DNA from: Candidatus Omnitrophota bacterium
GTDB lineage: Bacteria; Omnitrophota; Gorgyraeia; JABMRG01
DNA: 64,000 nt
NCBI GenBank assembly: GCA_028716165.1
Contig: JAQUQI010000001.1
Span: forward strand, 50,458-114,457
Direction of reading: 5' to 3'
Notes under the pieces: model-generated
Seen by the model: the letters and a program-made list of their open reading frames with translations, nothing else
What the model was told of the DNA's origin: nothing
Databases searched by the model: none
Position numbers and translations under genes: made by a program
Shown: one piece after another, positions 44,093 through 64,000 of the stretch
How the letters are laid out: the number at the start of each line of letters is the position of its first letter
Numbering within the stretch: position 1 is the stretch's first letter

Positions 44093-44214
44093 TAAACCCC
44101 TTCCAATACGATAGCATTCATTTTTGTTGCTTTTTCACGTAATGGCGCGATCGCACGATACTCATCTGAATCCCACCAAGCTTGGAATCTATCCATAGAA
44201 TCGAACTCTACCAT
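44093..44214 (-). pseudogene. possible C-terminal remnant of a DUF1330-like gene
   Basis: 40-codon ORF (MVEFDSMDRFQAWWDSDEYRAIAPLREKATKMNAIVLEGV). It is cut off at its 5' side by repeat copy 1. The family assignment is from memory only. Confidence 0.2.
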
Positions 44215-44216
44215 GA

Positions 44217-44334
44217 TAACATACGTAGACGTCCTATTTGGTAACACCCTACATATAGCGGGGCGCTAAAAGTAAAAAGTTTTTTATATCCATTTGGCAG
44301 GGTGTAACTAAATAGGACGCCTGCTGATACCTAC
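44217..44334. repeat. copy 1 of a ~118-bp repeat with ~26-bp terminal inverted repeats (MITE-like)
   Basis: Near-identical copies at 58036-58152, 59220-59335 and 63213-63337. Termini are GTAGACGTCCTATTTGGTAACACCCT and AGGGTGTAACTAAATAGGACGCCTGC. Confidence 0.85.
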
Positions 44335-46031: not shown

Positions 46032-46895
46032 TTATGTTTGTTTCTCTGGCTTATGGACTAAAATTCTATCTCCAGCAAACATTACTTCTTCTGGCTGGCC
46101 ACGAATAACTGCAATTGCATACCATTTCCATTCGCTTTCAACTCCGGCCAGTTTTCTTCTACCTTTCATTTTACTTCCGTATATAGTCCAACCTGAAGTT
46201 TCTAATTCACCCACCATATCAGAGACACGACTTGTAGCTTTCATTTGGCCAGGAATATCTATGTCATCCCAGATATCGCACCAATCTCGCAATTCTTGAA
46301 GGAAACCACCGACAAGATCGATTTCTGCATCATTATTAGGCTCGTCATTAAATGAATAAGAAAAATGACAGCTGGTTACAACATCAATAACTTCTCGGCC
46401 GGTGGTCAACCGTGGCATTACGGTTATTCGCTTTTGCCACGCTTCAATTATCCCGGGTTTTATTACTTCAATCAACTTTGCTAAAACAACATAGATACCC
46501 TCTTCCCATCTCCCTGCTATTCGATCTGCCAAAGTAGGCGAAAAAGATCTAATTTGCTTTGCGTCCATCTTAACCCAAATAGGGAGAATTACCTTCTCTC
46601 CATCTACTTCCCTTTGTGCCAACCCATCAAGTTCAAGCTTCGTATAGTGCTTATCAAAAAAAGCCGGGGACAAAACTGCAATACCGTAGCGGCTTTTCTT
46701 CAACCCTTCATCTATTTTATGTCGAAGGCTATCTCCAATTTTTAAATCAAACTGATCAAACCATACGCTTATTCCTAAAGAAGACAATAGCTGAGCAAGT
46801 GGTTTTGCAACTACCTCCCGATCTTCCGAGGCATATGAAATAAATACATCTTTCTCTACTGTAGAAGAATTATTCATTAAGCAATCCCATCTCAA
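46032..46895 (-). CDS. TIR-domain protein with uncharacterised C-terminal domain
   Basis: N-terminal TIR signature DVFISYASEDRE...SVWFD...GDSL...IAVLSP.F. It overlaps the 3' end of gajB by 26 nt, suggesting one operon. Confidence 0.65.
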   Translation of the reverse strand: MRWDCLMNNSSTVEKDVFISYASEDREVVAKPLAQLLSSLGISVWFDQFDLKIGDSLRHKIDEGLKKSRYGIAVLSPAFFDKHYTKLELDGLAQREVDGEKVILPIWVKMDAKQIRSFSPTLADRIAGRWEEGIYVVLAKLIEVIKPGIIEAWQKRITVMPRLTTGREVIDVVTSCHFSYSFNDEPNNDAEIDLVGGFLQELRDWCDIWDDIDIPGQMKATSRVSDMVGELETSGWTIYGSKMKGRRKLAGVESEWKWYAIAVIRGQPEEVMFAGDRILVHKPEKQT

Positions 46896-48816
46896 TCAAA
46901 AATCTTGAAGGCGTTTTACTCCATCCTCGATATTTTTCAGAATAGCTAAGTGTTAAACTTTTTATTGCCCGCGTAATCGCGACAAAGCAATTCCTCCGCT
47001 CTTCTTCCATTTCAGGACTCTTCTCGCCTTTTTGTTTACTCTGAAAAGATGGCAACTCATCTTCAACTAGACCAATCAAATATACATGATCAAATTCTTT
47101 GCCCTTTGCTCCATGTATTGACATAAGAACTACAGTATCGGGTTTTATCTTTGATTCTTTCGAGTGCAATTGTAATTCTTGCAAAAAGACCTCCAAAGAT
47201 AATTCTGTTCCAAGAGAAGCCGCTATTTCCTTAACAAGATCGTCCCAGACGGCGCGCTCTTCGTCATATCCCGCAAATACTTCTATACCTTGAGCGTTTG
47301 AAGCCACGTCTGGATTTTTTATCAGCTTGTCAAACCAGCTGATTGCATTCTTACAAAATAAACGGAAGTTCTTTTCGCCACCAATGAAGGCGAATACCTC
47401 AGCAATAATCTCTTTGGTTAAAACATCGCTACTCTTCTGCTCAGCAAATCTCATCCAATTTTGCAAGAAACCCAACGTCGAAGATTGCGCTTGCGTTACA
47501 ACTTCATCGGGGTCAATCTCAATGCCAACAAGTTGCTTAAATGCACCACACAAGGAATCTAAACTTGCCTTATCCTGCCGATTACTAGCAAGCCTTAAGA
47601 CCGAATGTAACCATACAAAAGGCGAACTAATAAACTCATCTTTCCTCTGCGCCACAACCGCAGGAATACCTTGATCTTGCAGTCCCTTAAAGGCCCCGTC
47701 TAATAACTTTCTGTTTCTGGCTAAAATAACAACAGATCCAAGCTGATTCGAGTAGCATTTTTTAATATCTTCACCAACGCCTTTTGCTTCTGTTTCAAAT
47801 TCAGGGAAGCGAGACAACAAACGCACCACATCCGCGCACTTACTAATTGGCTTATCTGCTAAAAGTGGTTTCTTCCCCGGAGATCTTAAAAAGTTATTAC
47901 TGATCAAATTATTCGCAATTGAAACAACCTCCGGAGGGCATCGATAATTCGTGGGCAACTGTAAAATTTCAGGGGAATAATCTTGAACAAATTGCTCGAT
48001 TCGCTTATGGCTCGCGCCGTTCCACTGATAAATAATCTGGTCATCATCAGCCACAATAAAAAAGTTTTTGTACTGATCCTCGGATAACGCTCTAATTAAT
48101 TTGTATTGTGCCTCATTTGTATCTTGAAATTCGTCTATGCATATGTAAGGATAAACTGTTCTATAACGTTTGGCAAAAGCCGGGAATTTCGTAAAAAGCC
48201 GGTAGGCCTGGAAAATCAACGAACTAAAATCTAAAGAATTTCGTCTTGATAATGCTTCTTCATAGGCTGGATAAACAACGGCCATGCGTTTTCCGAATTC
48301 CTTATCTCGAAAAACATCAACACACTGAGATGGCTCAATAAGAAACGATTTTAATCTTTGTATAACCGGCAATGTTTTCTTGTCGAGGTCAGATATTATA
48401 TCGCTTGTCTTCTTTGCTTCAGTTACCGCATCATCTAAAACGGCTTGAAGATCATAATCTTGAGAATAAATCTGAAAGTTTGGATTAATCCCTAAATGCA
48501 CTCCATGTTGACGTAATACATCCGCACAAAACGAATGGAATGTTCCTAAAAATAATCTGCTTTCTTGCCCCGGAACAAGATTAGCCACTCTTAAGCGCAT
48601 TTCGTCTGCGGCTTTATTAGTAAAAGTCAGGCCAAGAATTCTAAAATTCTTATCCTGACTTTTATCAAGAATCTTCGCTATACGACAGGTTAAAACTCTC
48701 GTCTTCCCAGACCCGGGGCCTGCAAGCACCAATAATGCCTCATCACCCCACTCAGCGGCTTTCTTCTGAACAAGACTTAATTTCTGCCATGCATTATCCA
48801 AGTCATTATTCGCCAT
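46870..48816 (-). CDS. gajB: UvrD/PcrA-like SF1 helicase (Gabija GajB-like)
   Basis: Walker A AGPGSGKT and helicase motifs (DEFQDTN, YRCPPEV). Immediately downstream of the OLD-family gene. Confidence 0.6.
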   Translation of the reverse strand: MANNDLDNAWQKLSLVQKKAAEWGDEALLVLAGPGSGKTRVLTCRIAKILDKSQDKNFRILGLTFTNKAADEMRLRVANLVPGQESRLFLGTFHSFCADVLRQHGVHLGINPNFQIYSQDYDLQAVLDDAVTEAKKTSDIISDLDKKTLPVIQRLKSFLIEPSQCVDVFRDKEFGKRMAVVYPAYEEALSRRNSLDFSSLIFQAYRLFTKFPAFAKRYRTVYPYICIDEFQDTNEAQYKLIRALSEDQYKNFFIVADDDQIIYQWNGASHKRIEQFVQDYSPEILQLPTNYRCPPEVVSIANNLISNNFLRSPGKKPLLADKPISKCADVVRLLSRFPEFETEAKGVGEDIKKCYSNQLGSVVILARNRKLLDGAFKGLQDQGIPAVVAQRKDEFISSPFVWLHSVLRLASNRQDKASLDSLCGAFKQLVGIEIDPDEVVTQAQSSTLGFLQNWMRFAEQKSSDVLTKEIIAEVFAFIGGEKNFRLFCKNAISWFDKLIKNPDVASNAQGIEVFAGYDEERAVWDDLVKEIAASLGTELSLEVFLQELQLHSKESKIKPDTVVLMSIHGAKGKEFDHVYLIGLVEDELPSFQSKQKGEKSPEMEEERRNCFVAITRAIKSLTLSYSEKYRGWSKTPSRFLIEMGLLNE

Positions 48817-48817
48817 T

Positions 48818-50734
48818 TTATCTCCCCAATGCCATGGAATCTTTTACTAAAGCAGAAAGAAAGTCGGGTACCCGATCTCCCTGCATATTTTTTCCCCGAA
48901 GTTTAGAAATCAACGCGTATGCATAGCCCACTTTATCTTTTCGGATAAGCGCTAATATTTCATTCCCATATTCAGCATCACCGGGCTTATTTTTTAACTT
49001 ATTGCCATTCCCCGTGATGAGCTCCGCATACTCAGCAACAAAACCATTTTTAATTAAGAATTCTTCTAAATCTTTACACGAATTAGGCCACAGCCTAATC
49101 GCGGTCTTAATTTGATCATCGCTGACACCACGATTCTTTACTTCTTTGATCGAATTCTTCCCCTGTTCATCGGTATCACACAGCATTAACCACGGAAAGG
49201 CAAATATTCGTGCTAACCCTACAAACAAACCAGCCGATCCATTATTTCTGTAATCAATTAAAGCAATGCCGTTGCAATCGAAAGACTGACCTAAAACTTC
49301 CGAGAAATAACGTACTATTGGATATTCTGATTGCCCTTCGCATAGAAGCCATGCCCGAGCAAAAAGAATTTCGCCTCTGATCCGCTTGACACATGTTTCT
49401 AACTTAATGAGATCTTGATCTGTTAAATGCAGACATGACTCCTCATATAAACTTTTGAGGTTTCCATGCAAATCAGTTTCGCCAGAATACATTGTTAAAA
49501 GCGACCGATATTCACTCTCTTCCATTTTCCCATTCAACGTTAATATCGATGTGGTCGAATCATAATGATACTTGGCAGATGATTGAGAACAAAAATTTTC
49601 TAATCCATCTTTGACCGGAAGCTTCACTGAAAATGAACGTTTAATACAATAAACATTAGATGCATTGTCGCCTCTCCTGAACAATCTAATGTCTTGGAAA
49701 GGAATTTCTTGAATAAAGTGGGGCGAATGAGAGGATATTATTTTTTGTGTCTTCAATTCGCATAAATTAGCGGCAAGCGCACGAATAGCTTGCGGATGCA
49801 AATGCGCCTCTGGCTCTTCCAATGTCAAAATAGCCTCTGTTTCTGATTCAAATGATGGCTTCAAAAGAATTTCAATATAAGCATAAAAAAGAAATAATAC
49901 AGTTAGACTTTGAATTCCTTGGCCATGACGGAGTAAAGGAATATCAATATCACTGCCCTTGGGCTTAATAACTACCTCTGATTTCGACATCAAATCCCAA
50001 GGCTTTAAAGGCACCGCCTGAATTGATGTATTACTGCCATCTCCAAAAGCCATAATTTTTTGGGCATTAGCAAAAGACGATCTAAATTTCTCAAGTCGAG
50101 GATCTGCCTTTAATAGATCCTTATTAATTTTCAGCAGATCTTCTCCGAGCGTTCTTCGCTGTTCATCACTAATCTTTAAATCTTTAAGAAATTTTCCCCA
50201 GTACTGCGACCTGACGGAAAACTCCTCGTCAGCATCCCGCAAAGCAGATAATGCGAATATTCGGATATAAGTTAAGAAGGCGGTAACATTACTGGCTTTT
50301 ACCTTTAAGACTTGTCCATCGATAGACAAAAATTCCACTCGGGGAGTGATAGTTTTGGTGACGGTGTCAGCTTTACTAGATAATCGTATACCGATAGAAT
50401 CGATATCTTTTATTGGATCCGTCTGGATAATGTCCTGAAGCGATTGAGATAACGATTCCGGCCATTCATCAGACTTGTCCTCGCGAAACCATAGCTCTAT
50501 TTCAATGCCTTCACTTGATAAAGGAGAATCCCCTGCTTTTGACATATAATAATCGTATTCATCGAATACAACGTTTTTCCCGTAAGAAGCCCGAGTCAAT
50601 ACGATTCGAATAGCCTCCAATAAAGCAGTTTTGCCGCTATTATTTTCTCCAATCAGAACGCAAGTGTCCGTAACGGACATCCGCATATCCTTAAGGCATC
50701 TAAAATTTTTTATAAAAATCTCTCTGAGTTTCAC
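48818..50734 (-). CDS. gajA: OLD-family ABC ATPase with C-terminal TOPRIM nuclease domain (Gabija GajA-like)
   Basis: N-terminus MKLREIFIKNFRCL...GENNSGKT is an OLD/RecF-like ATPase. The C-terminal Toprim has a glutamate in LLCEGQSE and a DTDEQG motif. 638 aa. Confidence 0.6.
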   Translation of the reverse strand: MKLREIFIKNFRCLKDMRMSVTDTCVLIGENNSGKTALLEAIRIVLTRASYGKNVVFDEYDYYMSKAGDSPLSSEGIEIELWFREDKSDEWPESLSQSLQDIIQTDPIKDIDSIGIRLSSKADTVTKTITPRVEFLSIDGQVLKVKASNVTAFLTYIRIFALSALRDADEEFSVRSQYWGKFLKDLKISDEQRRTLGEDLLKINKDLLKADPRLEKFRSSFANAQKIMAFGDGSNTSIQAVPLKPWDLMSKSEVVIKPKGSDIDIPLLRHGQGIQSLTVLFLFYAYIEILLKPSFESETEAILTLEEPEAHLHPQAIRALAANLCELKTQKIISSHSPHFIQEIPFQDIRLFRRGDNASNVYCIKRSFSVKLPVKDGLENFCSQSSAKYHYDSTTSILTLNGKMEESEYRSLLTMYSGETDLHGNLKSLYEESCLHLTDQDLIKLETCVKRIRGEILFARAWLLCEGQSEYPIVRYFSEVLGQSFDCNGIALIDYRNNGSAGLFVGLARIFAFPWLMLCDTDEQGKNSIKEVKNRGVSDDQIKTAIRLWPNSCKDLEEFLIKNGFVAEYAELITGNGNKLKNKPGDAEYGNEILALIRKDKVGYAYALISKLRGKNMQGDRVPDFLSALVKDSMALGR

Positions 50735-50776
50735 TGCTAATCCTCTTTAATACGGAGGTGATTCCTTTTCCCTAAT

Positions 50777-51304
50777 CTACACCGCCTCAAATACTCTTAT
50801 CTTATTCCGTACTTCTTCGAACATAACGTATTCGGGCCCCTTTGCCGTATCCCAATCGATTCCCTTATTCTTAAACCTTGGATCTGCACCTATCTCTATG
50901 TACATTTGATGATTACTTAGTTTGAACAAGACTTTACTTGCTTTTTCCAACAAAAAGAGATTCCGCGCAATTTCTTGAGTTTGCAATTTGTGCGCAATAT
51001 TGTGCGCTAAATCATTGCGATGTTCCCTCAATTCCTGAATAATCGAAACGTCATCAGAATCTATAATCTTCATAAAATCACGTAAATATAAAAGACAAGC
51101 TTCAAACTCATTCTTATGCCGAATTAAAACATCGTCTTCGTAAGACTTAAACGGCCCCCCTTCAGAAAACGTCATGTGCCAATAGAACGTTTTAATTGGC
51201 TTTACGATGAGACTTTTAACTAGTTCGAACGCAACTAAGATCAACCCAGCATAAGCGAGTGTTTGTGTAATCTCTCCATTTGTCAAATCACTAATTTTAT
51301 TCAT
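50777..51304 (-). CDS. hypothetical protein with N-terminal TM helix and HEPN-like Rx4H motif
   Basis: 175 aa with EHRNDLAHN. Sits between res and gajA. Confidence 0.35.
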   Translation of the reverse strand: MNKISDLTNGEITQTLAYAGLILVAFELVKSLIVKPIKTFYWHMTFSEGGPFKSYEDDVLIRHKNEFEACLLYLRDFMKIIDSDDVSIIQELREHRNDLAHNIAHKLQTQEIARNLFLLEKASKVLFKLSNHQMYIEIGADPRFKNKGIDWDTAKGPEYVMFEEVRNKIRVFEAV

Positions 51305-51482
51305 CGTTACTTTTATCTATCATCCTTCCGGAATTTCTTCTCGCATTTTGGACATTCGACTTCGTTATCGAAAAACAGGCTGCACGGCACATCGGCGCCG
51401 CAGTGCGGGCATTTCACGACGTCTGCGCCCATGGTGAAATCGTAGCCTAGAAACTCATTGAACGAATCATCGCCGGGCATTG

Positions 51483-54398
51483 TTAAAACAGGGTGCCCTG
51501 AATCATATTCTTGGTTATCTTTAGATAATTAAAAATCTCAAGAATGTTGGCTCCCTGATCCCGCATGCTATAGAACGTATTTTCGCCCACCAGCACATAT
51601 TCCCACTCCGCACCCATCCGGTCCTCCGGCTTCAGCTGATTGATCCTCTCGACCCAGTCGATGGTTGCCAGCTGCTTGAGCTTTACGTTTTCAACCGAAA
51701 TCTTATCCTGCCCCTTGGTTTCGACGATATAACTCCTGCCCTTGGTCTTTACTATGAAATCGGGAGAATAAGACGCCAGCATCCCATCGGATCGCACGTA
51801 ATTGATGCGGGCGAAATAGTGATAATTTTCATTAACCTTAACGAACGCCTCTACGTTGGTATCGCTATCGCAAAACTCCATAAAGGCTTTTTCCAGCCCG
51901 CCTTTATTCGAAGGATATGACTGCTTCTCATAAATCGTTTTGACAATATCAAGGCAATACTTCTCTCTCATTCTCAACGTCGCGATTTCCGAGAAGTGCC
52001 GCTTGATAATCGTTGCCTCGGAAATATCAATATTATTCTGCAGTTCAAAAATTGCCTTGCTTATCTGTTTGATAATATGTTCCACAATGCCGGTTTGCGA
52101 AAGCAATAATACGCGCCAATTATTCTCAAAAAAAGGGTCGAACTCCTGCTTGAATAACTTTTCCCGGACAAATTTATCAATCGCCCTGGCAACCTCGACC
52201 TGATTAACCTGCATAGAGGGATATTCTTTTGTCTTGCGCGCGCTTACCTTAACAATCATTGTAGAAACAGCATTAACGATCTTCCCGATAAACTCGTTAT
52301 AGCTCTTTGAATTAAAAACGTCTGCCTTGACCTCATAATCACCGAAGCGGGTCTTGACCGTCATCTCTTCGGAGTAAAAGATATCGCCGCCCTTAGGCAC
52401 CATCTTTTTGAGCTGTTCCAACCCATAAAAATCGAACGATGCCAGTTTGTCAGCGTCGATCTCCGTAGGCATAAGGTTCTCTTCCCGGTCAATAAGAATA
52501 ATCGGGAAATACAAATCGTAGTCCTTGTAATTGCTCTTGAGCCCTACGTTTATGATGTCGCCCAGGACATCCGTTCTGTCTTTGGGTTCGGTCTCGATCA
52601 CTGGCGCCTCTTTGATTAACTCATCATAAAATTCTATGAATGCCGGATGCTCAATAATACTTAAAATATCCATGCAATTCTTAGGCTCTTGTTTCTTCTG
52701 AAGAAGAGCAGTTCTATTTTCGTCCTTGCTTTCCTGATATTCCGGCTCGCGCCACATAAGCCGTAGGCCCCGCCCAATAACCTGCTCAAGAAGAATAGGC
52801 GCCTGGCTTGAGCGCAAAGGCACGGTAACGCAAATATTGTTGATATCAAACCCCTCACGTAACATCAAAACCGAAATAATCACTTTCGGCTGAGGATGCT
52901 TGTCCACATTAAAAAGCCGCTGCTTCAGCTGAAACCACTCATCCTGCGGCACGGACCCTTTTTTATCAGAGTCGATCTGCGCTACGTCCTTTTCATCCAG
53001 GCCCTCGTACTTTGTCAGATACTCCACGACATGCGGCGTAACTTTAGTATCCTCGCAAACAACGAACATCTTGGGATATTTTGAACATTCGGCCCCATCT
53101 GTTAACGAGGTAAAATGTTCCTCCAGTTTTTTAAGCTTGGCTAAACCCGCCCTCAGCATTGTCTTTTGTCCATTAGATAATCCTACGACCTCCCGACCGT
53201 CACGCTCCGCCTTGAAATCCAAAGGCAACGAGGCAATCTCCTTGCGACGGTCAAGCGCTATGGTCTTGACAAGGCCCATGTGGATTGCCGTACGAAGGTC
53301 GAAATCAATCACTATGTGTGGGAAATAGTGCTTCGTTCTTTTCTGACCGCTCCCGGTCACATCATATGGTGTAGCTGAAAAGTCTATCTGGATAAATTTC
53401 GATCCTTTGTCTGAACTGATATAAGAAAGGCTTCGCTGCCACTCAACCTCCTGAATATCGCCATACGTCTTGTTCTCATGGATATGGTGGGCTTCATCAT
53501 TGATAACAACTAAATCTTTTAACCTCTTCAAAAACTCAAGCTCATTGCCTTTAAGATACTGATTGTCCAGCGTCTCCAAGGAATGACCTGCGGATATTCC
53601 CGGCCGTATCGGCAGAATATCATCAACGATTTTGCTCGGATCTTCTAATGGTGAAATCTCGACAGATTCTTCATCATCAAGGCCTGACAGCAAATGCCAG
53701 TTTGTTATGGCGATAAGGCCGTCGCCCGTAACTTTTCTGCCGATTTCTTCCTTCCTGCAAACACTGCTCTGGATAAAGCCAAAAATCTCCTCGCTAAACC
53801 AGGGAGGAATAAATAAGGCCTCGTACTGCTTGAAGTCCGAAGATAAGAAACTACGCTGCCCTTCCTCATCCTCCTTGCCCAGATACGCATCCAATAGCCG
53901 CTCGTAAACAATCAGCCCCGGAGCCACAAGAAGAAAATTCTTGGAATACCAGCCGCTTAGCGCTTCTTCATGTTTCGCGTTTAGATACTGCCAAATGAGA
54001 AGCGCGTGCATTACCCAGGTTTTTCCGGTTCCGGTAGCCATTTTCATCGCGTACTTGGGATGCTGATATTTTGCCTTTTTAAGCTCGACCTTGTCCATCT
54101 CGGCAAGTATCTCGTCATCCACAAGGGAATACATATCAAAGACCGTTGCGGGCTTCAAAACCTCATGCACATAAATGGTATTCATGATGGCCTGCTTCTG
54201 GCCGATATGAAAGTTGATATTGCGGTTCTCGCAGAAATTATCCTCAAACCAGAACCGTAAGAGATCCCTGGTTACGGGGGTGAATTTTTCGATAAAAGCA
54301 GGGTCCTTAAGATTGAACTGGCTGTTAATGCTATCGGTAAGCCTTCTGGCAAAACGAAGCGGGATGTCCCGGGTGCCGATGTTAAGAGGCGTGGGCAT
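51483..54398 (-). CDS. res: Type III restriction enzyme, Res subunit (SF2 helicase-nuclease)
   Basis: Walker A TGTGKT and DEAH box VINDEAHH. 971 aa. Its start overlaps the mod stop. Confidence 0.8.
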   Translation of the reverse strand: MPTPLNIGTRDIPLRFARRLTDSINSQFNLKDPAFIEKFTPVTRDLLRFWFEDNFCENRNINFHIGQKQAIMNTIYVHEVLKPATVFDMYSLVDDEILAEMDKVELKKAKYQHPKYAMKMATGTGKTWVMHALLIWQYLNAKHEEALSGWYSKNFLLVAPGLIVYERLLDAYLGKEDEEGQRSFLSSDFKQYEALFIPPWFSEEIFGFIQSSVCRKEEIGRKVTGDGLIAITNWHLLSGLDDEESVEISPLEDPSKIVDDILPIRPGISAGHSLETLDNQYLKGNELEFLKRLKDLVVINDEAHHIHENKTYGDIQEVEWQRSLSYISSDKGSKFIQIDFSATPYDVTGSGQKRTKHYFPHIVIDFDLRTAIHMGLVKTIALDRRKEIASLPLDFKAERDGREVVGLSNGQKTMLRAGLAKLKKLEEHFTSLTDGAECSKYPKMFVVCEDTKVTPHVVEYLTKYEGLDEKDVAQIDSDKKGSVPQDEWFQLKQRLFNVDKHPQPKVIISVLMLREGFDINNICVTVPLRSSQAPILLEQVIGRGLRLMWREPEYQESKDENRTALLQKKQEPKNCMDILSIIEHPAFIEFYDELIKEAPVIETEPKDRTDVLGDIINVGLKSNYKDYDLYFPIILIDREENLMPTEIDADKLASFDFYGLEQLKKMVPKGGDIFYSEEMTVKTRFGDYEVKADVFNSKSYNEFIGKIVNAVSTMIVKVSARKTKEYPSMQVNQVEVARAIDKFVREKLFKQEFDPFFENNWRVLLLSQTGIVEHIIKQISKAIFELQNNIDISEATIIKRHFSEIATLRMREKYCLDIVKTIYEKQSYPSNKGGLEKAFMEFCDSDTNVEAFVKVNENYHYFARINYVRSDGMLASYSPDFIVKTKGRSYIVETKGQDKISVENVKLKQLATIDWVERINQLKPEDRMGAEWEYVLVGENTFYSMRDQGANILEIFNYLKITKNMIQGTLF

Positions 54399-56305: not shown

Positions 56306-56484
56306 TATCTCTCCCTTTTATTTTTATCTTTCTGCATCGCCTGGTTAATAAATCCCCTGATGATAGACACAACGGATGCGTTCTTATTTTGCTTCTGCAA
56401 CTCGAGGGCTTTTTCTTTCAGAAAAAAATACTGGTCTTGCGTGATTTCAATTGTCGTTTTCTTTATGCGTTTATTGGCAGGCAT
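56305..56484 (-). CDS. small ribbon-helix-helix-like protein, candidate controller of the Type III R-M operon
   Basis: 59-codon ORF (MPANKRIKKTTIEITQDQYFFLKEKALELQ...). Its stop overlaps the mod ATG (TAATG). Shorter than the ORF-track cutoff. Confidence 0.35.
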   Translation of the reverse strand: MPANKRIKKTTIEITQDQYFFLKEKALELQKQNKNASVVSIIRGFINQAMQKDKNKRER

Positions 56485-56559
56485 GTTTCGCTCCTTGATT
56501 GTTGCTTGACTATTTTACCCGTATACCCATATTTATGGATTATAGCACAATACATTGCT

Positions 56560-57290
56560 TTTGGAAACAAAAAAACCTCTAAGGGACAAGTAATCACACA
56601 AAGGGCGTTGCGGAAGCCCAAAGGGCTGAAGCCGCCCGGCTGTGACTGTTGGGCGGAGTTTTTTAAAATCCAAATATTCATCAAAGCAACGCGAACCCGA
56701 AGGGCAAAAGTCTTTCCGCCGAAGGCGGAATGTCTTTTGGCGGTGCGATCTGTTCTGGTTTTTTGAAAAAAAGACAGAAGTGTTGATGAATATTTGATAC
56801 AAGGTTTCTTTTCCTTTTTGGGGAAAAGTAGGCTTTGAGCGCAGGCAACGGAAGCCCGAAGGGCTGAAGTCCGAGCACAAAGACTGCTTTAGGTGGGTGG
56901 GGTATATAGAACCACCTCTGTTACCAAGATAGATTCGGCTTTGCCCCGACAAGCGATGTCCCGAAATGAATACGGGACAATCGCGCAGGCGGGGCGCGGA
57001 CGAAACCGAACAAAAACACCTTTTATAAATTTTTCGCGGCCGCCGATATAAAAAAGGAATAATTTAAGAGAATTTTTGCGAGGTTGAGGACGCTAAAGTG
57101 TTTGGCGAATTTTGGGTGGGGGCAAAATTCGCCAAACACGAAAAGCCGAATCGAACCCTTGCATAGGAAATGCTGGCGGTGCATCATTACCCCTTACATT
57201 GCCGTTAACTCAACTTGAAAAGCCGTAAAAAAGAACGGTTTAGCGAACTTGTAAAGAACAAACCAAGGGTCAGCCGAAAGTCCTCAGAAA
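56560..57290. repeat. mosaic repeat B (~0.7 kb, non-coding), partner of repeat A
   Basis: See repeat A. It contains two copies (56603-56639, 56843-56880) of a hairpin motif also present at 45901-45936. Confidence 0.8.
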
Positions 57291-57393
57291 AACTCGCTTT
57301 TTTGTATCAGTTTTATTCGTCATAAATTATGAAATATCTTTAGTCGTATATAAATCCCAATTTAGTCATGGTCGTTCATCGGTTCTATTAGCG

Positions 57394-58041
57394 TTAAATT
57401 TCTTTATTGATGTGGTAGTACGAAAATAATTTCCTATTTTTGTCTTTTGGTTCAAATAGTACGAGCATTGAATCATTGCAAGGGCCGAGTATGCCATTAA
57501 TCGAAGTGCAAGGTTTGTATAAAATGCCATCAAAGCCCATATTAAGTAGATATTCTGCAAATTCACCACTTTTTTTATATGACTGTTCGTTTCTTTGAAA
57601 CAAAATATCGAGCGCACTTTGATTTTGAATATCTTTATCAAAGTTAAATATTTTAGCAGATTGGTTAATCTTGAAAGCACCTTTGATTTCCTGTATTGGT
57701 TCTGGAGATGCAATCTGACTTGTCATTCTAGGCCATAAGTCTTGATTAAAATCAGGTTTATTATTATCAACTTTATAGTTCTTGAAATATTCTCCTATTT
57801 CAAAATCGATACGAGCGCAATCTTTAGCAAGATAACATACAGCTTGTTCTTTCGGAGCAAATCGAGTCTTCTTAGAATCTCTTTTAAAGTAAGGCTTCCA
57901 GTTTTTTGATGTTGTTCCACTATACCATTGAGAAACATAAACATGATCATTATGGCCTAATACATATTCTTTAAGATTTGATTCAATAAAAATTTCTTTG
58001 AATTGTGAGTTTTTCATGCTTGTAATCTTATTTGATAACAT
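57394..58041 (-). CDS. RES-domain protein (putative NAD+-targeting toxin)
   Basis: TRFAPKEQAVCYLAKDCARIDFEI (R, E) and GFDGILYKPCTSING...SMLVLFEP (S) resemble the RES domain's three conserved regions. Start taken as ATG at 58041, which lies inside repeat copy 2. Confidence 0.4.
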   Translation of the reverse strand: MLSNKITSMKNSQFKEIFIESNLKEYVLGHNDHVYVSQWYSGTTSKNWKPYFKRDSKKTRFAPKEQAVCYLAKDCARIDFEIGEYFKNYKVDNNKPDFNQDLWPRMTSQIASPEPIQEIKGAFKINQSAKIFNFDKDIQNQSALDILFQRNEQSYKKSGEFAEYLLNMGFDGILYKPCTSINGILGPCNDSMLVLFEPKDKNRKLFSYYHINKEI

Positions 58042-58152
58042 ACGTGGACGTCCTATTTGGTAACACCCTACATATGGCGGGGCGCTAAAAGTAAGAAGTT
58101 TTTTATATCTATTTGGCAGGGCGTAACTAAATAGGACGCCTGCTGATACCTC
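58036..58152. repeat. copy 2 of the ~118-bp repeat
   Basis: Alignment to the 44217-44334 copy. Confidence 0.85.
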
Positions 58153-58183
58153 TATTCTCATATTCACTGTTAAACGATTAATC

Positions 58184-59152
58184 TTATTTTTTTAAACGCT
58201 TCTCGATATCTAAAATGGTTGACCATTCTCGATCATCCAAACAATCAGGCTTTTCTAATGGTAATACTTGATTGCTAAAAATCATATTAAGCAAGCCAAA
58301 CAACTCGCTAAACTTGTATTGCTTAACAACTCTTTGGGCAGTATTTTTTAATGTTTCATAATCTTCTAGTTTCATCCACTGAGGCTTTTCAGCTTTAAGA
58401 AAGTCTATAGCAGATACATAATCGAAGCGACTTTCGGTATTTTGAAACATTACCCTGTAAGCCTCATCTCTCAACTCACGCTTATCTGCCTCTTTGTGTA
58501 AGATTTCATCTAATTTAACTTCTGTCAAATACACAAAAGGTTTCTTTTTGGATATTATTTCACGATAACTTTTAAATTCTGATTTCCCCGTCCAGTAACC
58601 TCTAAGAAATGAACAAATGAGAATAAATAATATATGTATAAGATAAATAACTGATAATAAAAGGATAGACAAAATAGTAGATGAATTTGACTGCGAAAGA
58701 GCTGGTTTACACAAACCATTCTGGTCAGCTATAGTAATATTTTCATCCTGAACATCTGCACCAATTGAGCTAAATATCAGAGTAAAATTACCATCCGGCG
58801 GAAGTTCAGGGTACAGTAAACTGAATTCTGCATCTTTCTTAATTATTTCAGGTTTGTCGGAAGCAAAATTTCTATTAACATCATATTTAATAACTTTTCG
58901 CTTAATAGTTACGCGAACATTTTCTGCTTTTAAGTTACCTAAGTTTTTAATGACTAGCTCTTGGGCAATTACTTTCGCATCTTCTGGTTTAATAGTCTCG
59001 CCCTGAAATGAAGTAATTGATATGCCTTTGGACAAAGTATAACTAACATTGGGTGACTTTTTGTTTAACGCAAATGACAAAATGACAGCGATTAAAGGAA
59101 CTATAATACTTATATTTTTCACAATTTTCATATAACCCTCCTCAAAAATCAT
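58184..59152 (-). CDS. hypothetical membrane protein
   Basis: 322 aa with an N-terminal signal/TM segment and an internal TM. A GAGGAGGG ribosome-binding site precedes an internal ATG (MKIVKNI). Confidence 0.4.
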   Translation of the reverse strand: MIFEEGYMKIVKNISIIVPLIAVILSFALNKKSPNVSYTLSKGISITSFQGETIKPEDAKVIAQELVIKNLGNLKAENVRVTIKRKVIKYDVNRNFASDKPEIIKKDAEFSLLYPELPPDGNFTLIFSSIGADVQDENITIADQNGLCKPALSQSNSSTILSILLLSVIYLIHILFILICSFLRGYWTGKSEFKSYREIISKKKPFVYLTEVKLDEILHKEADKRELRDEAYRVMFQNTESRFDYVSAIDFLKAEKPQWMKLEDYETLKNTAQRVVKQYKFSELFGLLNMIFSNQVLPLEKPDCLDDREWSTILDIEKRLKK

Positions 59153-59219
59153 ACTAAATCATTCATCCATTTTTTTATCTTTCCGATATCAACATCCGTG
59201 AACACAGGATAATTTCTAT

Positions 59220-59335
59220 TAACATACGTAGACATCCTATTTGGTGACACCCTACATATAGCGGGGCGCTAAAAGTAAGGTGTTTTTTATATCCATTTGG
59301 CAGAGTGTAACTAAATAGGACGCCTGCTGATATCT
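59220..59335. repeat. copy 3 of the ~118-bp repeat
   Basis: Alignment to the other copies. Confidence 0.85.
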
Positions 59336-59370
59336 GCAAATCCTTTTTTAAAACCGTTCATTGGCACCCC

Positions 59371-59583
59371 CTATTCGTTACCTTGAATATTTAAACTTTT
59401 AATTTCTTCCAACCCTATGTTTTTATATTCTTCGGGAAGAATCAAATGTTCTGCATTTAAAACAACTATATTTTTGATTATCTGGCCGGACTTTAACACA
59501 ATATCTACTTTTTGATACCCCATGCCGGTTTCTGGGTATTTAAGTAAATATTCAGTCCAGTATTTATTTAGTTTCAGTTTCAT
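59371..59583 (-). CDS. small protein paralogous to the N-terminal domain of the adjacent TNT-like protein
   Basis: 70 aa sharing the PETGMGYQ motif and flanking residues with residues 1-60 of 59584..60246. Confidence 0.4.
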   Translation of the reverse strand: MKLKLNKYWTEYLLKYPETGMGYQKVDIVLKSGQIIKNIVVLNAEHLILPEEYKNIGLEEIKSLNIQGNE

Positions 59584-60246
59584 TTAATTCGCTGGGATTG
59601 TATTGGGTCCAGTTACAGTCTTTTTGGGAGATCCATTTTCAAATAACACCTCTACTCCACCACCAGGTTTTCCATTCGCTGGTTCTACAACTCCAACTCG
59701 AACAGACGTTTTTTCAGGAGGCTGAATAGTAAAAACATAAATTGCAGGCTCATCACTAGGCAAGGCATATCTGTTCATTGCATCACTTCCCGTTCTAACA
59801 TTTCGAGCATCTGCTTCTGTAGTTGCATAAGCTCCGGGTAGTAAACTGCCATCCTCCCCAATACGACGGTCATTCCTATAGGGTGAGAACCTTTTAAAAA
59901 CTTGATCTTTGCCTGTTAAAGAACTAGCGGCTTGACAAGCAGGCACTCCTGCAGATTTTGCAAAATGCCTAGTTTCTCCAAGTTGAAGTCGGCTTCGTCC
60001 AACAACTTTTAATGTTCGAATGTACCCAGGCCTTTCTGCTTCGTTAAGAATTGCTGAATATGTAAGAAATCGCCTACCCATAATTTTTTCAATTCTTTCT
60101 TCGGGAATAAAAACTTCTGAATTCAGCACTACGCCTTGCGAGGTAGATAAATTACTCATTGAGGCTTCGACATATTGATACCCCATCCCTGTCTCTGGTT
60201 GACTAACTAATTCTCGAATTTGTGTATCAGATAATTTGTACGGCAT
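59584..60246 (-). CDS. two-domain protein: N-terminal PETGMGYQ-motif domain + C-terminal TNT-like (NAD+ glycohydrolase toxin-like) domain
   Basis: The C-terminal region (YRNDRRIGEDGSLLPGAYATTEADARNVRTGSDAMNRYALP...GKPGGGVEVLF) resembles the TNT/DUF4237 pattern ending in G-Q-P-G-G-G. This is recalled from memory, not searched. Confidence 0.35.
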   Translation of the reverse strand: MPYKLSDTQIRELVSQPETGMGYQYVEASMSNLSTSQGVVLNSEVFIPEERIEKIMGRRFLTYSAILNEAERPGYIRTLKVVGRSRLQLGETRHFAKSAGVPACQAASSLTGKDQVFKRFSPYRNDRRIGEDGSLLPGAYATTEADARNVRTGSDAMNRYALPSDEPAIYVFTIQPPEKTSVRVGVVEPANGKPGGGVEVLFENGSPKKTVTGPNTIPAN

Positions 60247-60258
60247 ATCATCCCTCCT

Positions 60259-62058
60259 TCAATTTTTCTCTTGCTGTCTTTTAGTTACACAAACTAAAAG
60301 GCAAATACTGAGCCATAAAAGAAATAACGATGAATTACTGCTTATATCTAACGAATTTATCAGACCATGGCAAACCCTATTCCTTAAATTTGGGCCATAC
60401 TTTTTTATGAGGAGCGAACGCATTTCCCATACTAAATCTTTTCCAAAGATAGCTTCTGCGCTCTGGTCATTTAATAATTGATTTAAGTCGCGTTCCTCTT
60501 GCACCCCGCTCGACGAAACCGATGTTGTTTTAAGCCCATTTAAGCCAAAAAGCATCCTTATAGAATTCTCAATCTGGGGGACAATAAAGTGAATAAATGT
60601 CAGATAGTCGCCCTCAAATCCGGCAATCAAAGCCCTCTCAAAGATATCCGTTCGATCTTTTGGCACAAAGATGCTCTTTCCAACTAATTCCTTTATAGTA
60701 TCCCGCCATGATTCCTCTGATTGAAGAAATAAGTCAACACCTCTTTTTATCGTCGTACAAGCCGAAAGACTTTGACCGAGATTATATCCTTTGATTATTT
60801 GCGCCTTAAGGCTACCTTCATAATCCTCAGTCATGCCAGGTATTTTCGCAGTAACGTTTCCCTCATCTTCAATTATGTGGGCACCAATAATTCCTTGCAG
60901 CGGATGCTCTTTAAGCATTTTTTCAGCAGACGCTTTCTCCTGGTCGTAATTAAATGGTCTGTGCAAGGCGGCAAAAGCCTCGATTGCCTCGATTCCTTTC
61001 TTGCCCTGTATTAAGTCGTCAGCGATTTTTATTAATGGGCCTGCGTCAATAGTTGGACTTTTTATCACCTTCATTTGACTGATTGAAATTTTGTTTGCTT
61101 CCTTCAATTCATGTACTAACTCTTCCGCTCGCTTTTTGTCACCTGCCGCTCGGTATGCGTGAATAGCTTGCTCAATCCTATGTGCCAAGTTTAAGCCGTC
61201 ACAACCTTGAGGAGTCTTAAAAGCCTGTGCTTCGTCTTCCCAATGTTTAGCTATGGCTAACTTTGCTTCCTTTGCCTTTTCAGGCTTGTCCGCATAACTA
61301 TAACATGTTGCCGCATATTCATAGTATTTTCGAGGGGCATCACAACCGGGAGAAATTGGAAAACCTTTGGCAATTTCTACCGCCTTCCCAGCAAGCTCTT
61401 CCCAATTGTCAACAAGCTTATTCTCGATTAAAAGCTCTAAAAGCGAAGACGGCCAATAATCCTGTTTCGCATTAAAGCATGTCTTCATGCTTTCTTCAAA
61501 GAGACTCAGAATCTTATCTCGGACAGTCTGCCTTTCTTGAGCTTTCTCACCCAACTCCATAGCTATTTGCGTAGCTCGTTTAAGCCATTCACTTCTCGGC
61601 ACCCAACACTCATCCTTATCCTCGTCAACAGATTGCAAATATGCCTTTACGGCTTTCTGCGCAAACAAATAATTTCTGCGTCTTATCCAAAGGACATCAC
61701 TAATTCTGGCAACAAATTGAAGATTAGTAAATACAGTTAATACTTCTTCAAGTTCCGACAATTCTGTGTCGCTCAAATCTTCAGGCATCATTGTTCTTCC
61801 CTGTGGCCCTGACATAAGTGGCCCAAATGGCTGTTTCTCGCCCCATTGAAAAAACATCGAGAAAACGCCCCAAAGTAGCCGCATAAATTCTTCCAATTCC
61901 TTATCATCAGCCTTCTTAGCGGCATCTTGCCTCTGCCTAAACGAAGATAAAAAATCGGTAAACTTCTTTCCCTGAACATCGGCAATAGCCTCTTTACAAG
62001 CACATATTAACTTTTCACTTAATTTTGACATCTTCTTTATCCATCTGCTAAATCTCAT
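60259..62058 (-). CDS. large hypothetical protein with C-terminal HEPN-like motif (DUF4209-like)
   Basis: 599 aa. The C-terminal GPNLRNRVCHGL fits the HEPN Rx4-6H motif. Confidence 0.35.
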   Translation of the reverse strand: MRFSRWIKKMSKLSEKLICACKEAIADVQGKKFTDFLSSFRQRQDAAKKADDKELEEFMRLLWGVFSMFFQWGEKQPFGPLMSGPQGRTMMPEDLSDTELSELEEVLTVFTNLQFVARISDVLWIRRRNYLFAQKAVKAYLQSVDEDKDECWVPRSEWLKRATQIAMELGEKAQERQTVRDKILSLFEESMKTCFNAKQDYWPSSLLELLIENKLVDNWEELAGKAVEIAKGFPISPGCDAPRKYYEYAATCYSYADKPEKAKEAKLAIAKHWEDEAQAFKTPQGCDGLNLAHRIEQAIHAYRAAGDKKRAEELVHELKEANKISISQMKVIKSPTIDAGPLIKIADDLIQGKKGIEAIEAFAALHRPFNYDQEKASAEKMLKEHPLQGIIGAHIIEDEGNVTAKIPGMTEDYEGSLKAQIIKGYNLGQSLSACTTIKRGVDLFLQSEESWRDTIKELVGKSIFVPKDRTDIFERALIAGFEGDYLTFIHFIVPQIENSIRMLFGLNGLKTTSVSSSGVQEERDLNQLLNDQSAEAIFGKDLVWEMRSLLIKKYGPNLRNRVCHGLINSLDISSNSSLFLLWLSICLLVCVTKRQQEKN

Positions 62059-62127
62059 TTAAATACTTTACGATAGTCATGCAACACTGCATTCCTTAAA
62101 AGCGCCACCTTTTAGGGTTTTTATTTT

Positions 62128-63099
62128 TCACCAAGCTGTTACACGATAATCTTTCCCGTCCTTTCCAGTCCCTTCAAAAGTGCGAGGGATTGTCAGGTTA
62201 AAGTTTCTCAATCCTTTTGTAATTTCCATTTTTAAAGATTTGCGCCTTTTCTCATCAAGCAAGGCATAATCAAGTTCTTGCAAAATATATTTTTTTCTGT
62301 CCGCGCTCTTTTGATTGCGTCTTTTTTGATCCCTTAGCAATATTAAAAGTATTATAATTGCTTTTCTTGTATATCGTGAGATAAGGCTTCGATCAGGGTC
62401 ATACGATAAAGATCCTCCTCCATGAACTAATGTGCTTCGTTTATTATAAAATGATTTTAGCTTTTCAAAACTTTCTATCGGGTCGATACCACAAAAGCTG
62501 AGTAAAAAACTCGCTCGTTGTGCTAATTTGTATTTGATATCTATAGGCGCATCATTAAATAGCGCCTCCATGCTAATCATCGCATTAACGAAGCCTTCGT
62601 CACTATGAATAGATTTTTTATTTGCTTCGTGGAAGTATTCTAAGGCCACAGCTAAAAATTTGTTCTGATTAACAATATCAATATACTTATCATGAAGCTT
62701 ACCAATGAACCCCAAGAACTTGTGAGCATATTTTTCTATACCATCCACAGCTTCATTAGGTATAGATGTAGTGATTGAACAGGAAAAAAGTGGTTTCTTT
62801 CCAAGCTCACTTTCGGAAGATATTGATCTCCCACCACCACAAGTTAAATCAGGAGAATTCGGCGTTATCAAACAAGATACCCATAAATAGGGGATTATTT
62901 TATTCTCGTTATCTGTCGTTTTATTATCATCACCTAACAGATAGGCAATAAGATTGTCGCCCTTTTTCTCTAGCAACAACTCGCCTTTTTTTAACCAGAC
63001 TTTTTTCTTCAGATGTACCTGTCTAGGAATTAGCCCATCTATCGTAAAATTCCACTGGTATAACTTTGAATTAACTTTTCCACTCATACCATGCATCAT
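62128..63099 (-). CDS. hypothetical HEPN-motif protein (Abi-like)
   Basis: 323 aa. YNKRSTLVHGGG fits the Rx4-6H HEPN motif. Confidence 0.35.
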   Translation of the reverse strand: MMHGMSGKVNSKLYQWNFTIDGLIPRQVHLKKKVWLKKGELLLEKKGDNLIAYLLGDDNKTTDNENKIIPYLWVSCLITPNSPDLTCGGGRSISSESELGKKPLFSCSITTSIPNEAVDGIEKYAHKFLGFIGKLHDKYIDIVNQNKFLAVALEYFHEANKKSIHSDEGFVNAMISMEALFNDAPIDIKYKLAQRASFLLSFCGIDPIESFEKLKSFYNKRSTLVHGGGSLSYDPDRSLISRYTRKAIIILLILLRDQKRRNQKSADRKKYILQELDYALLDEKRRKSLKMEITKGLRNFNLTIPRTFEGTGKDGKDYRVTAW

Positions 63100-63212
63100 A
63101 TAATTCTGCCTCGCCTTCTTCTGCCAAATCCTGTTTTATCCCTATTAATCTCTATCGCCCTTTCTACCCATTACGAATATCAACGGCTTCCGTTTACCAG
63201 ATGGTGCTTAAA

Positions 63213-63337
63213 TAACATACGTAGACGTCCTATTTGGTAACACCCTACATACTACATATAGCGGGGCGCTAAAAGTAAAAAGTTTTTTATATCCATTTGG
63301 CAGGGTGTAACTAAATAGGACGCCTGCTAATACCTAC
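63213..63337. repeat. copy 4 of the ~118-bp repeat (with 7-bp internal duplication)
   Basis: Alignment to the other copies. ACATACT is duplicated at 63247-63260. Confidence 0.85.
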
Positions 63338-63443
63338 TGCATAATCCGAATCATTGGTGATAAACCGAAAAATGTTCTTAGGCTCATGGTTCTCCAAGAA
63401 CTTCTCGAATTCACCTTTATTTCCAGCGAGAACAAGAATCATT

Positions 63444-64000
63444 TTAGCTCTTTCCATTAGCCATACGCAGTAGATCGTTCTGTGTCTCATAAACGCATGA
63501 TGCTATCAACTTAATAAAATCCGTGTCGCTTTTATGCGCTTTTTCAAGAGCGCTGATGTATTCCGACCGTTTAAGCGGCGGGATTATTGCAATGATGTAT
63601 CCTGCCTGCATAAGCGCCACATTCATTAAAAGTCTGGCCACTCGTCCATTGCCGTCAACAAACGGATGAATAAACACAAATTCTTTATGAAACTTGGCGG
63701 CATAGACAACAGGATGGGTGTCTTTCTTCAAACGGGGCAAATCCTTAATAAATTTCTGCATAATCCCGGGAAGCGCGTCTGGTGTAGGCAAAGGATATTG
63801 AGAACCCGTAATAATAGCCTGAACCTTCCGATACACACCGGCATCTTCTTCTTTGATGCGGTGATAAAAAAGCGCGTGCAACTTTTTGATATCTTCTTCC
63901 GTTATTGTTTTCCCGGTAGCAAGCGCATACATATGATCAAACGCGTCACTGTGCCCCGTGGCCTCGTAATGATCTCTAAGCGGCTTTCCGGCAATGGTGA
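63444..64000 (-). CDS. Fic/DOC family protein (5' end outside window)
   Basis: Fic motif HPFVDGNGRVARL. The frame stays open upstream of the annotated ATG at 63932 to the window edge. Confidence 0.8.
   Translation of the reverse strand, partial: TIAGKPLRDHYEATGHSDAFDHMYALATGKTITEEDIKKLHALFYHRIKEEDAGVYRKVQAIITGSQYPLPTPDALPGIMQKFIKDLPRLKKDTHPVVYAAKFHKEFVFIHPFVDGNGRVARLLMNVALMQAGYIIAIIPPLKRSEYISALEKAHKSDTDFIKLIASCVYETQNDLLRMANGKS

Follow-up and report, generated by a model that had tools for sequence, protein, structure and literature searches.

Gene Content and Setting of the Island

The stretch of DNA analyzed here (the window) comprises 64,000 nucleotides (nt) of contig JAQUQI010000001.1 (positions 50,458 to 114,457) in assembly GCA_028716165.1, a metagenome-assembled genome (MAG) of a Candidatus Omnitrophota bacterium. 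We read the segment from 43.2 to 64 kb as a mosaic anti-phage defense island of independent minus-strand modules, lying in the chromosome beside dnaK, hflX, and miaB, and we place the probability of this reading, including the way in which the island would work, at about 0.8. The locus is of an ordinary type (a defense island); its novelty consists of new family members and one candidate two-gene NADase module. This module, a TNT-like gene with a small partner, is the most interesting novelty, followed by a set of oriented 119-nt repeats. In gene direction, the modules are a Fic gene; an Apea-like HEPN gene; PDC-S39; the TNT-like gene with a 70-aa gene; a membrane protein gene; a RES-like gene; a small open reading frame (ORF) with a Type III restriction–modification (R-M) system; and a block of HEPN-like, GajA, GajB, and TIR genes. 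The genes of the island, in that direction, are as follows:

63444–63932, minus strand: short Fic protein, 162 aa, with an intact HPFVDGNGRVAR motif
62128–63099, minus strand: 323-aa protein with an Apea-like HEPN C-terminal half (RSTLVH)
60259–62058, minus strand: PDC-S39 candidate defense protein, DUF7380 plus DUF4209 (C6orf70-type HEPN), by PADLOC and Pfam
59584–60246, minus strand: 220-aa protein with an N-terminal PETGMGYQ domain and a C-terminal TNT-like NADase domain (ADP-ribosyltransferase fold), from homologs, an AlphaFold2 (AF2) model, and Foldseek
59371–59583, minus strand: 70-aa partner, a paralog of the toxin's N-terminal domain (PE[TS]GMGYQ motif)
58184–59152, minus strand: 322-aa predicted membrane protein, alone between two 119-nt repeats
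57394–58017, minus strand: solo divergent RES-domain protein, 207 aa from its probable start, with no Xre antitoxin, from profiles, an AF2 model, and Foldseek
56305–56484, minus strand: 59-aa ORF abutting mod
54398–56305, minus strand: Type III Mod methyltransferase
51483–54398, minus strand: Type III Res
50777–51304, minus strand: 175-aa HEPN-like protein (RNDLAH), first gene of its block
48818–50734, minus strand: GajA (OLD-family ATPase plus TOPRIM)
46870–48816, minus strand: GajB (UvrD-type helicase)
46032–46877, minus strand: 281-aa protein with a TIR domain and a conserved C-terminal domain, from Pfam TIR_2, PADLOC, and homologs
44453–45052, minus strand: 199-aa predicted membrane protein

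All credible genes between about 43.2 kb and 64 kb, where the window ends, are on the minus strand. The GC content is ~0.45 in the flank versus 0.36–0.41 across most of the island. The island runs up to the window edge, and its distal boundary lies beyond it. A Pfam scan showed that the flank (1–43 kb) is made up of housekeeping and sugar-modification genes, among them a TPR/SPOR protein gene and the following:

34908–36812: DnaK
38753–40030: HflX
41702–43135: MiaB, adjoining the island

The original prediction had described the last 18 kb of the window as a concentration of NAD+-targeting and HEPN modules. All of the elements it named were found where it had placed them, on the minus strand, in what is indeed a dense island with three different NAD+-using folds (TIR, RES, and TNT-like) beside HEPN proteins. 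Profile hidden Markov model (HMM) and fold tests reassigned none of its calls to an unrelated family.

A TNT-like Gene and Its Small Partner

The 220-aa protein matched Pfam TNT (PF14021) at E = 0.014 and 16.3 bits, without reaching the gathering cut-off of 27. It has 161 homologs, nearly all of ~220 aa, none of which carries a precomputed Pfam domain. When relatives were scanned, 30 of 42 matched Pfam TNT weakly (best 1.3e-4), with essentially no competing family. The AF2 model (pLDDT 90, pTM 0.86) was compared with PDB using Foldseek, and the top 15 matches were all TNT-like NADases, including Tne2 (6b12), Serratia Rhs1-CT (6xtd), and fungal NADases; the TM-scores normalized to the target were 0.68 and 0.61 for the top two. 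All of these are members of the group of TNT-like NAD(P)+ glycohydrolases (PMC10539506). When the TNT-like protein, the RES-like protein, and the three HEPN proteins were searched against PDB by sequence, neither single proteins nor profiles returned anything meaningful.

Among the TNT-like relatives, F117, R119, D126, R128, and R159 are invariant, as is a GGGVE motif. The key residues of TNT are F727 of an aromatic scaffold, the pair D756/R757, R780, and the catalytic-site Q822, and the Gln is important in TNT, Tne2, and Tse6 (PMC6398120). In the family studied here, the GGGxQ position is occupied by an invariant Glu (E199), with residues matched from the Pfam-aligned region and not by superposition.

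The 70-aa ORF begins at the base right after the toxin stop codon. Its product is 40% identical to the first ~50 residues of the toxin (BLASTP, E = 4e-8), and the two have in common the invariant motif PE[TS]GMGYQxV...V.N.E. The order of toxin and then small gene (66–74 aa) was kept in all five of the distinct contexts found, which span several phyla, namely the window and four related loci (related contigs are given L numbers here), in which the toxin is 86% (L008), 70% (L009), 46% (L010), and 40% (L017/L018, a Verrucomicrobiae MAG) identical to the window copy. The neighbors of the pair vary with the context and include R-M, AbiE, methyltransferase, reverse-transcriptase, and HepT/MNT genes. 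PDC-S39 lies upstream of the pair only in the window, and the pair is therefore an independent two-gene module. It has no model in PADLOC, PHROGs, or NCBIfam and falls below the Pfam threshold. No relatives of the TNT-like protein were present in IMG/VR, INPHARED, or BFVD. A viral or plasmid origin was considered for this gene and rejected, as it has no viral relatives and its sole plasmid match covers 28% and comes from one Rhizobium plasmid.

Most likely, the two proteins work as a toxin and its immunity protein or regulator. The 70-aa protein, made from an adjacent and probably translationally coupled gene, would hold the NADase off until infection upsets the balance. We tentatively suggest that the 220-aa and ~70-aa proteins may form a new, phylum-spanning two-gene immunity module that depletes NAD+, in which the free-standing copy of the N-domain would be a regulator or antitoxin, acting as a decoy or competitor rather than as a plug of the active site. 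The original prediction had proposed that partner genes in this island may be novel, and the clearest such partner is the 70-aa gene, which it did not name; a novel partner is unproven for the RES-like gene and not needed for the TIR gene.

The toxin-like genes could alternatively be toxin–antitoxin (TA) addiction modules or interbacterial toxin/immunity pairs in a recombination hot spot, in which case the 220-aa and 70-aa proteins would be a secreted NADase effector and its immunity protein. The closest structures (Tne2, Rhs1-CT, and TNT) are those of secreted effectors whose immunity gene lies downstream (PMC10539506), the toxin-first order of the pair is that of effector and immunity genes, and the closest relatives of the RES-like protein, MbcT and NatT, are classical TA toxins. 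However, the 220-aa protein carries no recognizable Pfam trafficking domain (PAAR, Rhs, or LXG), and its family is uniformly a stand-alone protein of this size. All five neighborhoods of the pair are rich in R-M, Abi, and TA genes, not in secretion genes, and homology of the immunity protein to the N-domain of its own toxin does not fit the polymorphic-toxin pattern. We consider this explanation unlikely and favor defense as the role of the pair.

A Solo RES-like Gene

Judging from profiles and a structural model, the product of 57394–58017 is a rare, divergent RES protein. The full ORF (57394–58041, 215 aa) gave a partial alignment to Pfam RES (PF08808) at E = 0.017 and 15.6 bits, with the cut-off of 23.2 not reached, and has 7 close homologs. 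A profile search of 1.84 billion representatives brought this to 20 relatives, which marks a very rare clade; 13 of these 20 match Pfam RES (best 3.6e-11). Across the 20 sequences, R60 is invariant, E81 occurs in at least 90%, and S/T158 occurs in nearly all (215-aa ORF numbering), and Y70 is also conserved. The only meaningful PDB neighbors of the AF2 model in Foldseek were MbcT (6fkg, E = 1.2e-3, probability 1.0) and NatT (8qnl). Translation probably starts at M9 (58017), given that the eight codons before it are inside a 119-nt repeat and that the homologs begin at an MK(N/T) aligned to M9. The 255-aa protein annotated by NCBI (P0121) probably starts too early, since its extension (58017–58167) is translated 119-nt repeat.

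As had been predicted, there is no Xre/DUF2384 gene beside the RES-like gene; upstream are a 119-nt repeat and then the 322-aa membrane protein, and downstream are 0.9 kb of non-coding repeats. The genes upstream of two homologs are unrelated: one encodes a 145-aa transmembrane/Zn-ribbon protein, the other a DUF4136 protein. No neighbor is conserved across the three contexts available, which leaves a novel partner for this gene unproven. The 145-aa gene upstream of the L012 homolog was considered as a conserved partner and rejected, as it has no counterpart in the window (tblastn).

Two further observations concern the surroundings of RES genes in related contigs. In L012, a Y1 transposase gene (978–1661; IS200/IS605 type or that of transposases associated with repetitive extragenic palindromes) precedes the closest RES-like homolog by 0.8 kb; Y1 transposases act on palindromic ends, and this could be relevant to the palindromic repeats described below. 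A second, different RES-domain protein (Pfam RES 1.7e-6) is encoded in L008 (17554–18420), right after a Type I R-M system and before RadC, and linkage of RES genes to R-M operons may recur in the lineage.

HEPN Proteins and the Strength of the Family Assignments

The protein encoded by 60259–62058 matched PADLOC PDC-S39 at 3.3e-118 over residues 19–597 of 599 aa, with Pfam matches to DUF7380 (6.8e-36) and DUF4209 (1.5e-15, 57.5 bits vs. a cut-off of 22.3). DUF4209 is the C6orf70 HEPN family, which has a conserved Rx4-6H motif (Anantharaman et al., PMC3710099). With an RNRVCH motif at residue 559, this protein has both the domain and the motif of a HEPN protein. The 175-aa protein (50777–51304) matched Pfam HEPN_Swt1 at 1.8e-4 (22.2 bits vs. 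a cut-off of 27.5) and HEPN_Cthe2314 at 0.03, and its RNDLAH motif is inside the aligned region. The 323-aa protein (62128–63099) matched HEPN_Apea at 5e-3 (17.6 bits vs. a cut-off of 24.4) over model positions 3–128 of 136, with RSTLVH again inside the aligned region, and matched phrog_28161 at 2.7e-5. All three had been called HEPN proteins in advance; the call is robust for 60259–62058, while the other two remain sub-threshold with the motif at the expected place.

As a control, the motifs were counted in housekeeping ORFs of the window. Of 37 such ORFs, 23 (62%) contain the loose Rx4-6H motif, which is thus no evidence by itself. The strict form, R[NDHQ]xxxH, is present in 0 of 37 housekeeping ORFs vs. 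two of the three HEPN candidates.

Several points weigh against the segment being a defense island that works through these effectors. The RES-like and TNT-like proteins of the window and two of its three HEPN proteins all score below their own Pfam cut-offs. The AF2 model of the RES-like protein is of moderate quality (pLDDT 70), with a TM-score of about 0.5, and a solo RES gene with no visible antitoxin is hard to square with a constitutively active toxin. The Glu in place of the key Gln means that the 220-aa protein could be an ADP-ribosyltransferase rather than a plain NADase.

Sub-threshold scores of this kind, along with the loose motif in so many control ORFs, would also be expected if the RES, TNT, and HEPN calls were chance similarities in unrelated ORFs or decaying pseudogenes. 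We find this highly improbable. The family-wide matches are consistent (30 of 42 for TNT and 13 of 20 for RES) and meet essentially no rival family, independent fold matches with a probability of 1.0 lead to the same two families, polar residues are invariant at the expected positions, and the ORFs are intact, full-length, and conserved across phyla. The evidence is thinner for the two weak HEPN proteins, for which it consists of an alignment to nearly the whole Apea-domain profile and of the strict motif RNDLAH. The RES and TNT calls of the original prediction are thus upheld by the profile matches of relatives and by the folds, although the window ORFs themselves stay below the cut-offs.

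The HEPN–Gabija–TIR Block

A complete Gabija system occupies 46870–50734, with both subunits recognized by PADLOC and Pfam. GajA matched the PADLOC model at 3.3e-201 over residues 1–631 of 638 aa and the Pfam families AAA_15 and OLD-like_TOPRIM, and GajB matched its PADLOC model over the full length (3e-258) and Pfam UvrD-helicase (1.5e-68). gajB begins 2 nt after the gajA stop, and the start of the TIR gene overlaps the end of gajB. The TIR ORF spans 46032–46895, with an annotated start at 46877. The TIR call made beforehand was confirmed above threshold by Pfam TIR_2 (2e-22, 80.4 bits, cut-off 28). The protein has an N-terminal TIR domain and a conserved 160-aa C-terminal domain, and the PADLOC models PDC-S66, ThsB, and retron-TIR align only to the TIR part. 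Its family counts 331 full-length homologs in many phyla. Glu82 is invariant in 33 homologs and, by its position in an xELDGL motif, would be the catalytic Glu. There was no ThsA-like gene among the island ORFs scanned, and only the TIR domain resembles ThsB, which does not make a Thoeris system.

Members of the same TIR family follow AAA_13 and Abi_C genes in L014 and stand alone in Longimicrobium. The gene is therefore an autonomous module that needs no novel partner, and the possibility that it encodes a third Gabija subunit was rejected on account of these unrelated contexts. Within the window, 51393–46024 is 81% identical to L016 over 5.39 kb, which is exactly the extent of the HEPN-like, GajA, GajB, and TIR genes; in L016 they lie behind a different R-M system (SNF2-PLD/methyltransferase). 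By this comparison, the four genes are a portable 5.4-kb block. Upstream of the block, a 150-nt stretch between res and the HEPN-like gene (51323–51471) is 80% identical to L008 19115–19263, just upstream of an nSTAND NTPase gene, and may be a common leader or promoter at module junctions.

Restriction–Modification, Fic, and Other Genes

The mod and res genes follow each other with a 1-nt overlap and constitute a Type III R-M system. Mod matched Pfam N6_N4_Mtase (6e-44) and PADLOC MTase_III (3.6e-77), and Res matched Pfam ResIII (3e-15) and PADLOC REase_III (5.2e-22). The 59-aa ORF abutting mod had no significant Pfam match and, by eye only, looks like a ribbon-helix-helix controller. Its DNA is 76% identical to L008 12395–12480, which lies upstream of a Type I R-M system, and the ~800-nt non-coding leader is conserved there as well.

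The Fic protein scored 4.9e-23 (82.2 bits vs. a cut-off of 24) against Pfam, and its HPFVDGNGRVAR motif, read from the translation, satisfies HxFx(D/E)GNGRxxR. It also matched PADLOC PDC-S04 (2e-23) and SoFic (2e-22), aligning from model position ~67 on and lacking the N-terminal ~65 positions. Both Fic and Type III R-M had been anticipated and are borne out by Pfam and PADLOC. Some 10 kb of the 18 kb are nevertheless taken up by complete systems that have already been described, namely this R-M system and Gabija, the latter overlooked by the original prediction. PDC-S39 is likewise a catalogued PADLOC candidate, Fic fits PDC-S04/SoFic, and the TIR protein resembles PDC-S66/ThsB but differs in architecture.

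The 199-aa membrane protein was detected as an ORF with a weak, sub-threshold Pfam match and no PADLOC or PHROG match, and the 322-aa membrane protein had no Pfam, PADLOC, NCBIfam, or PHROG match. A 144-aa ORF (43213–43647) between miaB and the first 119-nt repeat weakly matches the C-terminal part of the Exo_endo_phos family and may be a gene remnant at the island border. ORFs 45527–45937, 56194–56766 (plus strand), 56533–56952, and 59175–59339 were judged spurious, being translated repeat or non-coding DNA. No tRNA or tmRNA genes were found in the window, and an Rfam scan of the whole window at the gathering threshold found no RNA family. In the flank, the region 10000–14000 has a GC content of 0.34–0.38 amid methyltransferase, radical-SAM/B12, cytidylyltransferase, and epimerase genes and is probably a variable surface-polysaccharide locus.

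Oriented Palindromic Repeats

Four copies of a 119-nt repeat lie in the island, vs. 0 expected in the pattern search, and none lies in the core genes at 1–44 kb. All four are in one orientation, and they split the island into four units:

44214–44332, minus strand: copy 1, last in gene direction, at the island edge towards miaB
58033–58151, minus strand: copy 2
59217–59335, minus strand: copy 3
63217–63335, minus strand: copy 4, with a 7-nt insertion

Without gaps, the copies are 76–96% identical to the reference copy, and that at 63217 is ~90% identical by gapped BLAST. Folding of the plus strand gives a long, imperfect hairpin structure (z = −5.2). One true match was found elsewhere in 596 Gb of genomes, on the 2.9-kb contig L001 (JAQVLK010000103.1), where two copies bracket a single DUF4365-domain gene (663 aa) and follow a Fic gene. 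L001 is binned as Candidatus Gracilibacteria, and its repeat is 96% identical to the Omnitrophota MAG copy; either the short contig was mis-binned, or the element moved between lineages. The Joint Genome Institute (JGI) metagenomes contained no true repeat, the three matches there being chance 18–21-mers, and nhmmer found no diverged copies in related loci.

The repeats share traits with attC sites, each being an imperfect palindrome within the range of 57–141 nt, in one orientation, and 3′ of what would be its cassette. The island could thus be an integron-like cassette array, either a cluster of attC sites lacking an integrase (CALIN) or the distal part of a sedentary chromosomal integron, with attC-type repeats and an integrase beyond 64 kb; the palindromes would then be recombination sites of a non-canonical integron-like system that stocks defense genes in Omnitrophota. 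Each of the four copies, absent from the 44 kb of core genes, is 3′ of a gene or gene group, the repeat length is 113–126 nt, and the better hairpin fold is that of the strand opposite to the genes. The copies are closely alike (more than 90%), as in chromosomal integron arrays, the arrangement in L001 around a single gene agrees with a cassette, and short-read contigs end inside the repeat. Integron cassettes can, moreover, carry defense systems (bioRxiv 10.1101/2024.07.02.601719; PMC12614218).

However, a regular-expression search of both strands found no RYYYAAC or GTTRRRY core site in any of the four copies, and no pair of the two when 30-nt flanks were included. The outer 10 nt of the two repeat ends are not complementary, the mismatches are symmetric and not extrahelical bulges, and the ‘GTTA’ end is not conserved in the L001 copy. 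One ‘cassette’ would measure 13.8 kb with ~10 genes, and no integrase is visible within the window. The scarcity of the repeat elsewhere, with a single other contig in the genomes, 0 in the JGI metagenomes, and no diverged copies in related loci, also speaks against an integron. A canonical attC identity was rejected on the missing boxes and the ‘GTTA’ end, and we hold both the cassette array and the non-canonical recombination sites to be quite unlikely. A lineage-specific element of the repetitive extragenic palindromic (REP) or enterobacterial repetitive intergenic consensus (ERIC) kind was ranked higher because the copies have neither attC core sites nor complementary ends.

Two further non-coding regions contain repeats and have no assigned strand:

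45619–45999: left copy of an X element, inverted relative to 57008–57294 (inverted repeats I1–I3)
56583–57294: non-coding stretch with three hairpin repeats (56583–56871) and the right copy of the X element (57008–57294)

The X element copies (~290 bp) are 90–95% identical, and the inverted pair brackets an 11-kb segment with the R-M, HEPN, Gabija, and TIR genes. The element also occurs twice in L008, as an inverted pair flanking other defense genes; candidate identities are a miniature inverted-repeat transposable element (MITE)-like element, a promoter-bearing element, or a recombination substrate. The stretch at 56583–56871, upstream of the 59-aa ORF, holds three copies of a GCCC-TTCG-GGC type hairpin motif, CTTCAGCCCTTCGGGCTTCCG, which recur in L008 beside other defense genes. 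Rfam scans of 43.6–46.05 kb and 56.3–57.4 kb at E ≤ 1 gave no match. Most likely, the 119-nt repeats and the inverted ~290-bp repeats are lineage-specific intergenic elements that favor the exchange of modules by recombination.

Working Model and Significance

From what is known of their families, we infer that the effectors of the island would act in abortive infection. The R-M and Gabija systems would hit incoming DNA first. Once this first line fails, the TIR, RES-like, and TNT-like enzymes would destroy NAD+, and the HEPN proteins would cleave RNA, both groups serving as suicide or dormancy effectors.

Little has been charted of the defense islands in uncultured, ultra-small phyla like Omnitrophota. 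In this one, the RES-like and TNT-like folds were recognized only by sensitive methods, which implies that such islands hold toxin families missed by current HMM sets. The TNT-like pair counts at least 161 members and is modeled in none of Pfam, PADLOC, and PHROGs; it could bring a new NADase family, for defense or as a TA system, along with a novel mode of regulation. The solo RES clade poses the puzzle of how a RES toxin is restrained without an Xre antitoxin.

Comparison with Known Systems

Like known defense islands, the segment is a dense one-strand cluster with Gabija, Type III R-M, TIR, HEPN, Fic, and PADLOC candidate systems, its GC content is below that of the flanks, and it is a mosaic whose blocks are common to related contigs but in other combinations. 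It differs in its host, an uncultured Omnitrophota MAG, in having several modules outside PADLOC v2, Pfam, and PHROGs, and in the oriented 119-nt palindromic repeat that punctuates its modules. These repeats resemble attC sites and ERIC, REP, and Correia repeats in being closely alike, intergenic, orientation-biased imperfect palindromes of ~120 nt. They differ from attC sites in lacking the core sites and from ERIC/REP elements in having been found so far only inside the defense island (0 copies in 44 kb of core) and on one other contig.

The Gabija system is typical in its full-length, adjacent GajA and GajB in canonical order. Here, in two genomes, it is part of one block that opens with a 175-aa HEPN-like gene upstream and closes with an overlapping TIR gene downstream; the TIR family is not Gabija-specific.

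Xre-RES toxins degrade NAD+. The RES-like protein has in common with the Xre-RES TA systems (MbcTA, NatRT, and P. putida Xre-RES) a RES-type fold and the Arg/Glu/Ser(Thr) triad plus Tyr. It differs from them in that no MbcA/NatR-type (Xre/DUF2384) gene lies on either side and in that its clade has an extra N-terminal region of ~55 aa with an invariant Trp.

The TNT-like pair compares with TNT-IFT of M. tuberculosis, Tne2-Tni2, Tse6-Tsi6, and Serratia Rhs1CT-RhsI1 in the fold of its C-terminal ~115 aa (Foldseek probability 1.0), in the aromatic, Arg, and Asp positions named above, which are invariant here, and in the small gene directly downstream. It differs in that the 220-aa protein lacks any domain for secretion or trafficking, carries Glu for the conserved Gln in GGGxQ/E, and possesses the N-terminal PETGMGYQ domain. 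The 70-aa protein is a paralog of this N-domain and unrelated to the immunity proteins IFT, Tni2, and RhsI, and the context of the pair is one of defense genes rather than of type VI or type VII secretion systems.

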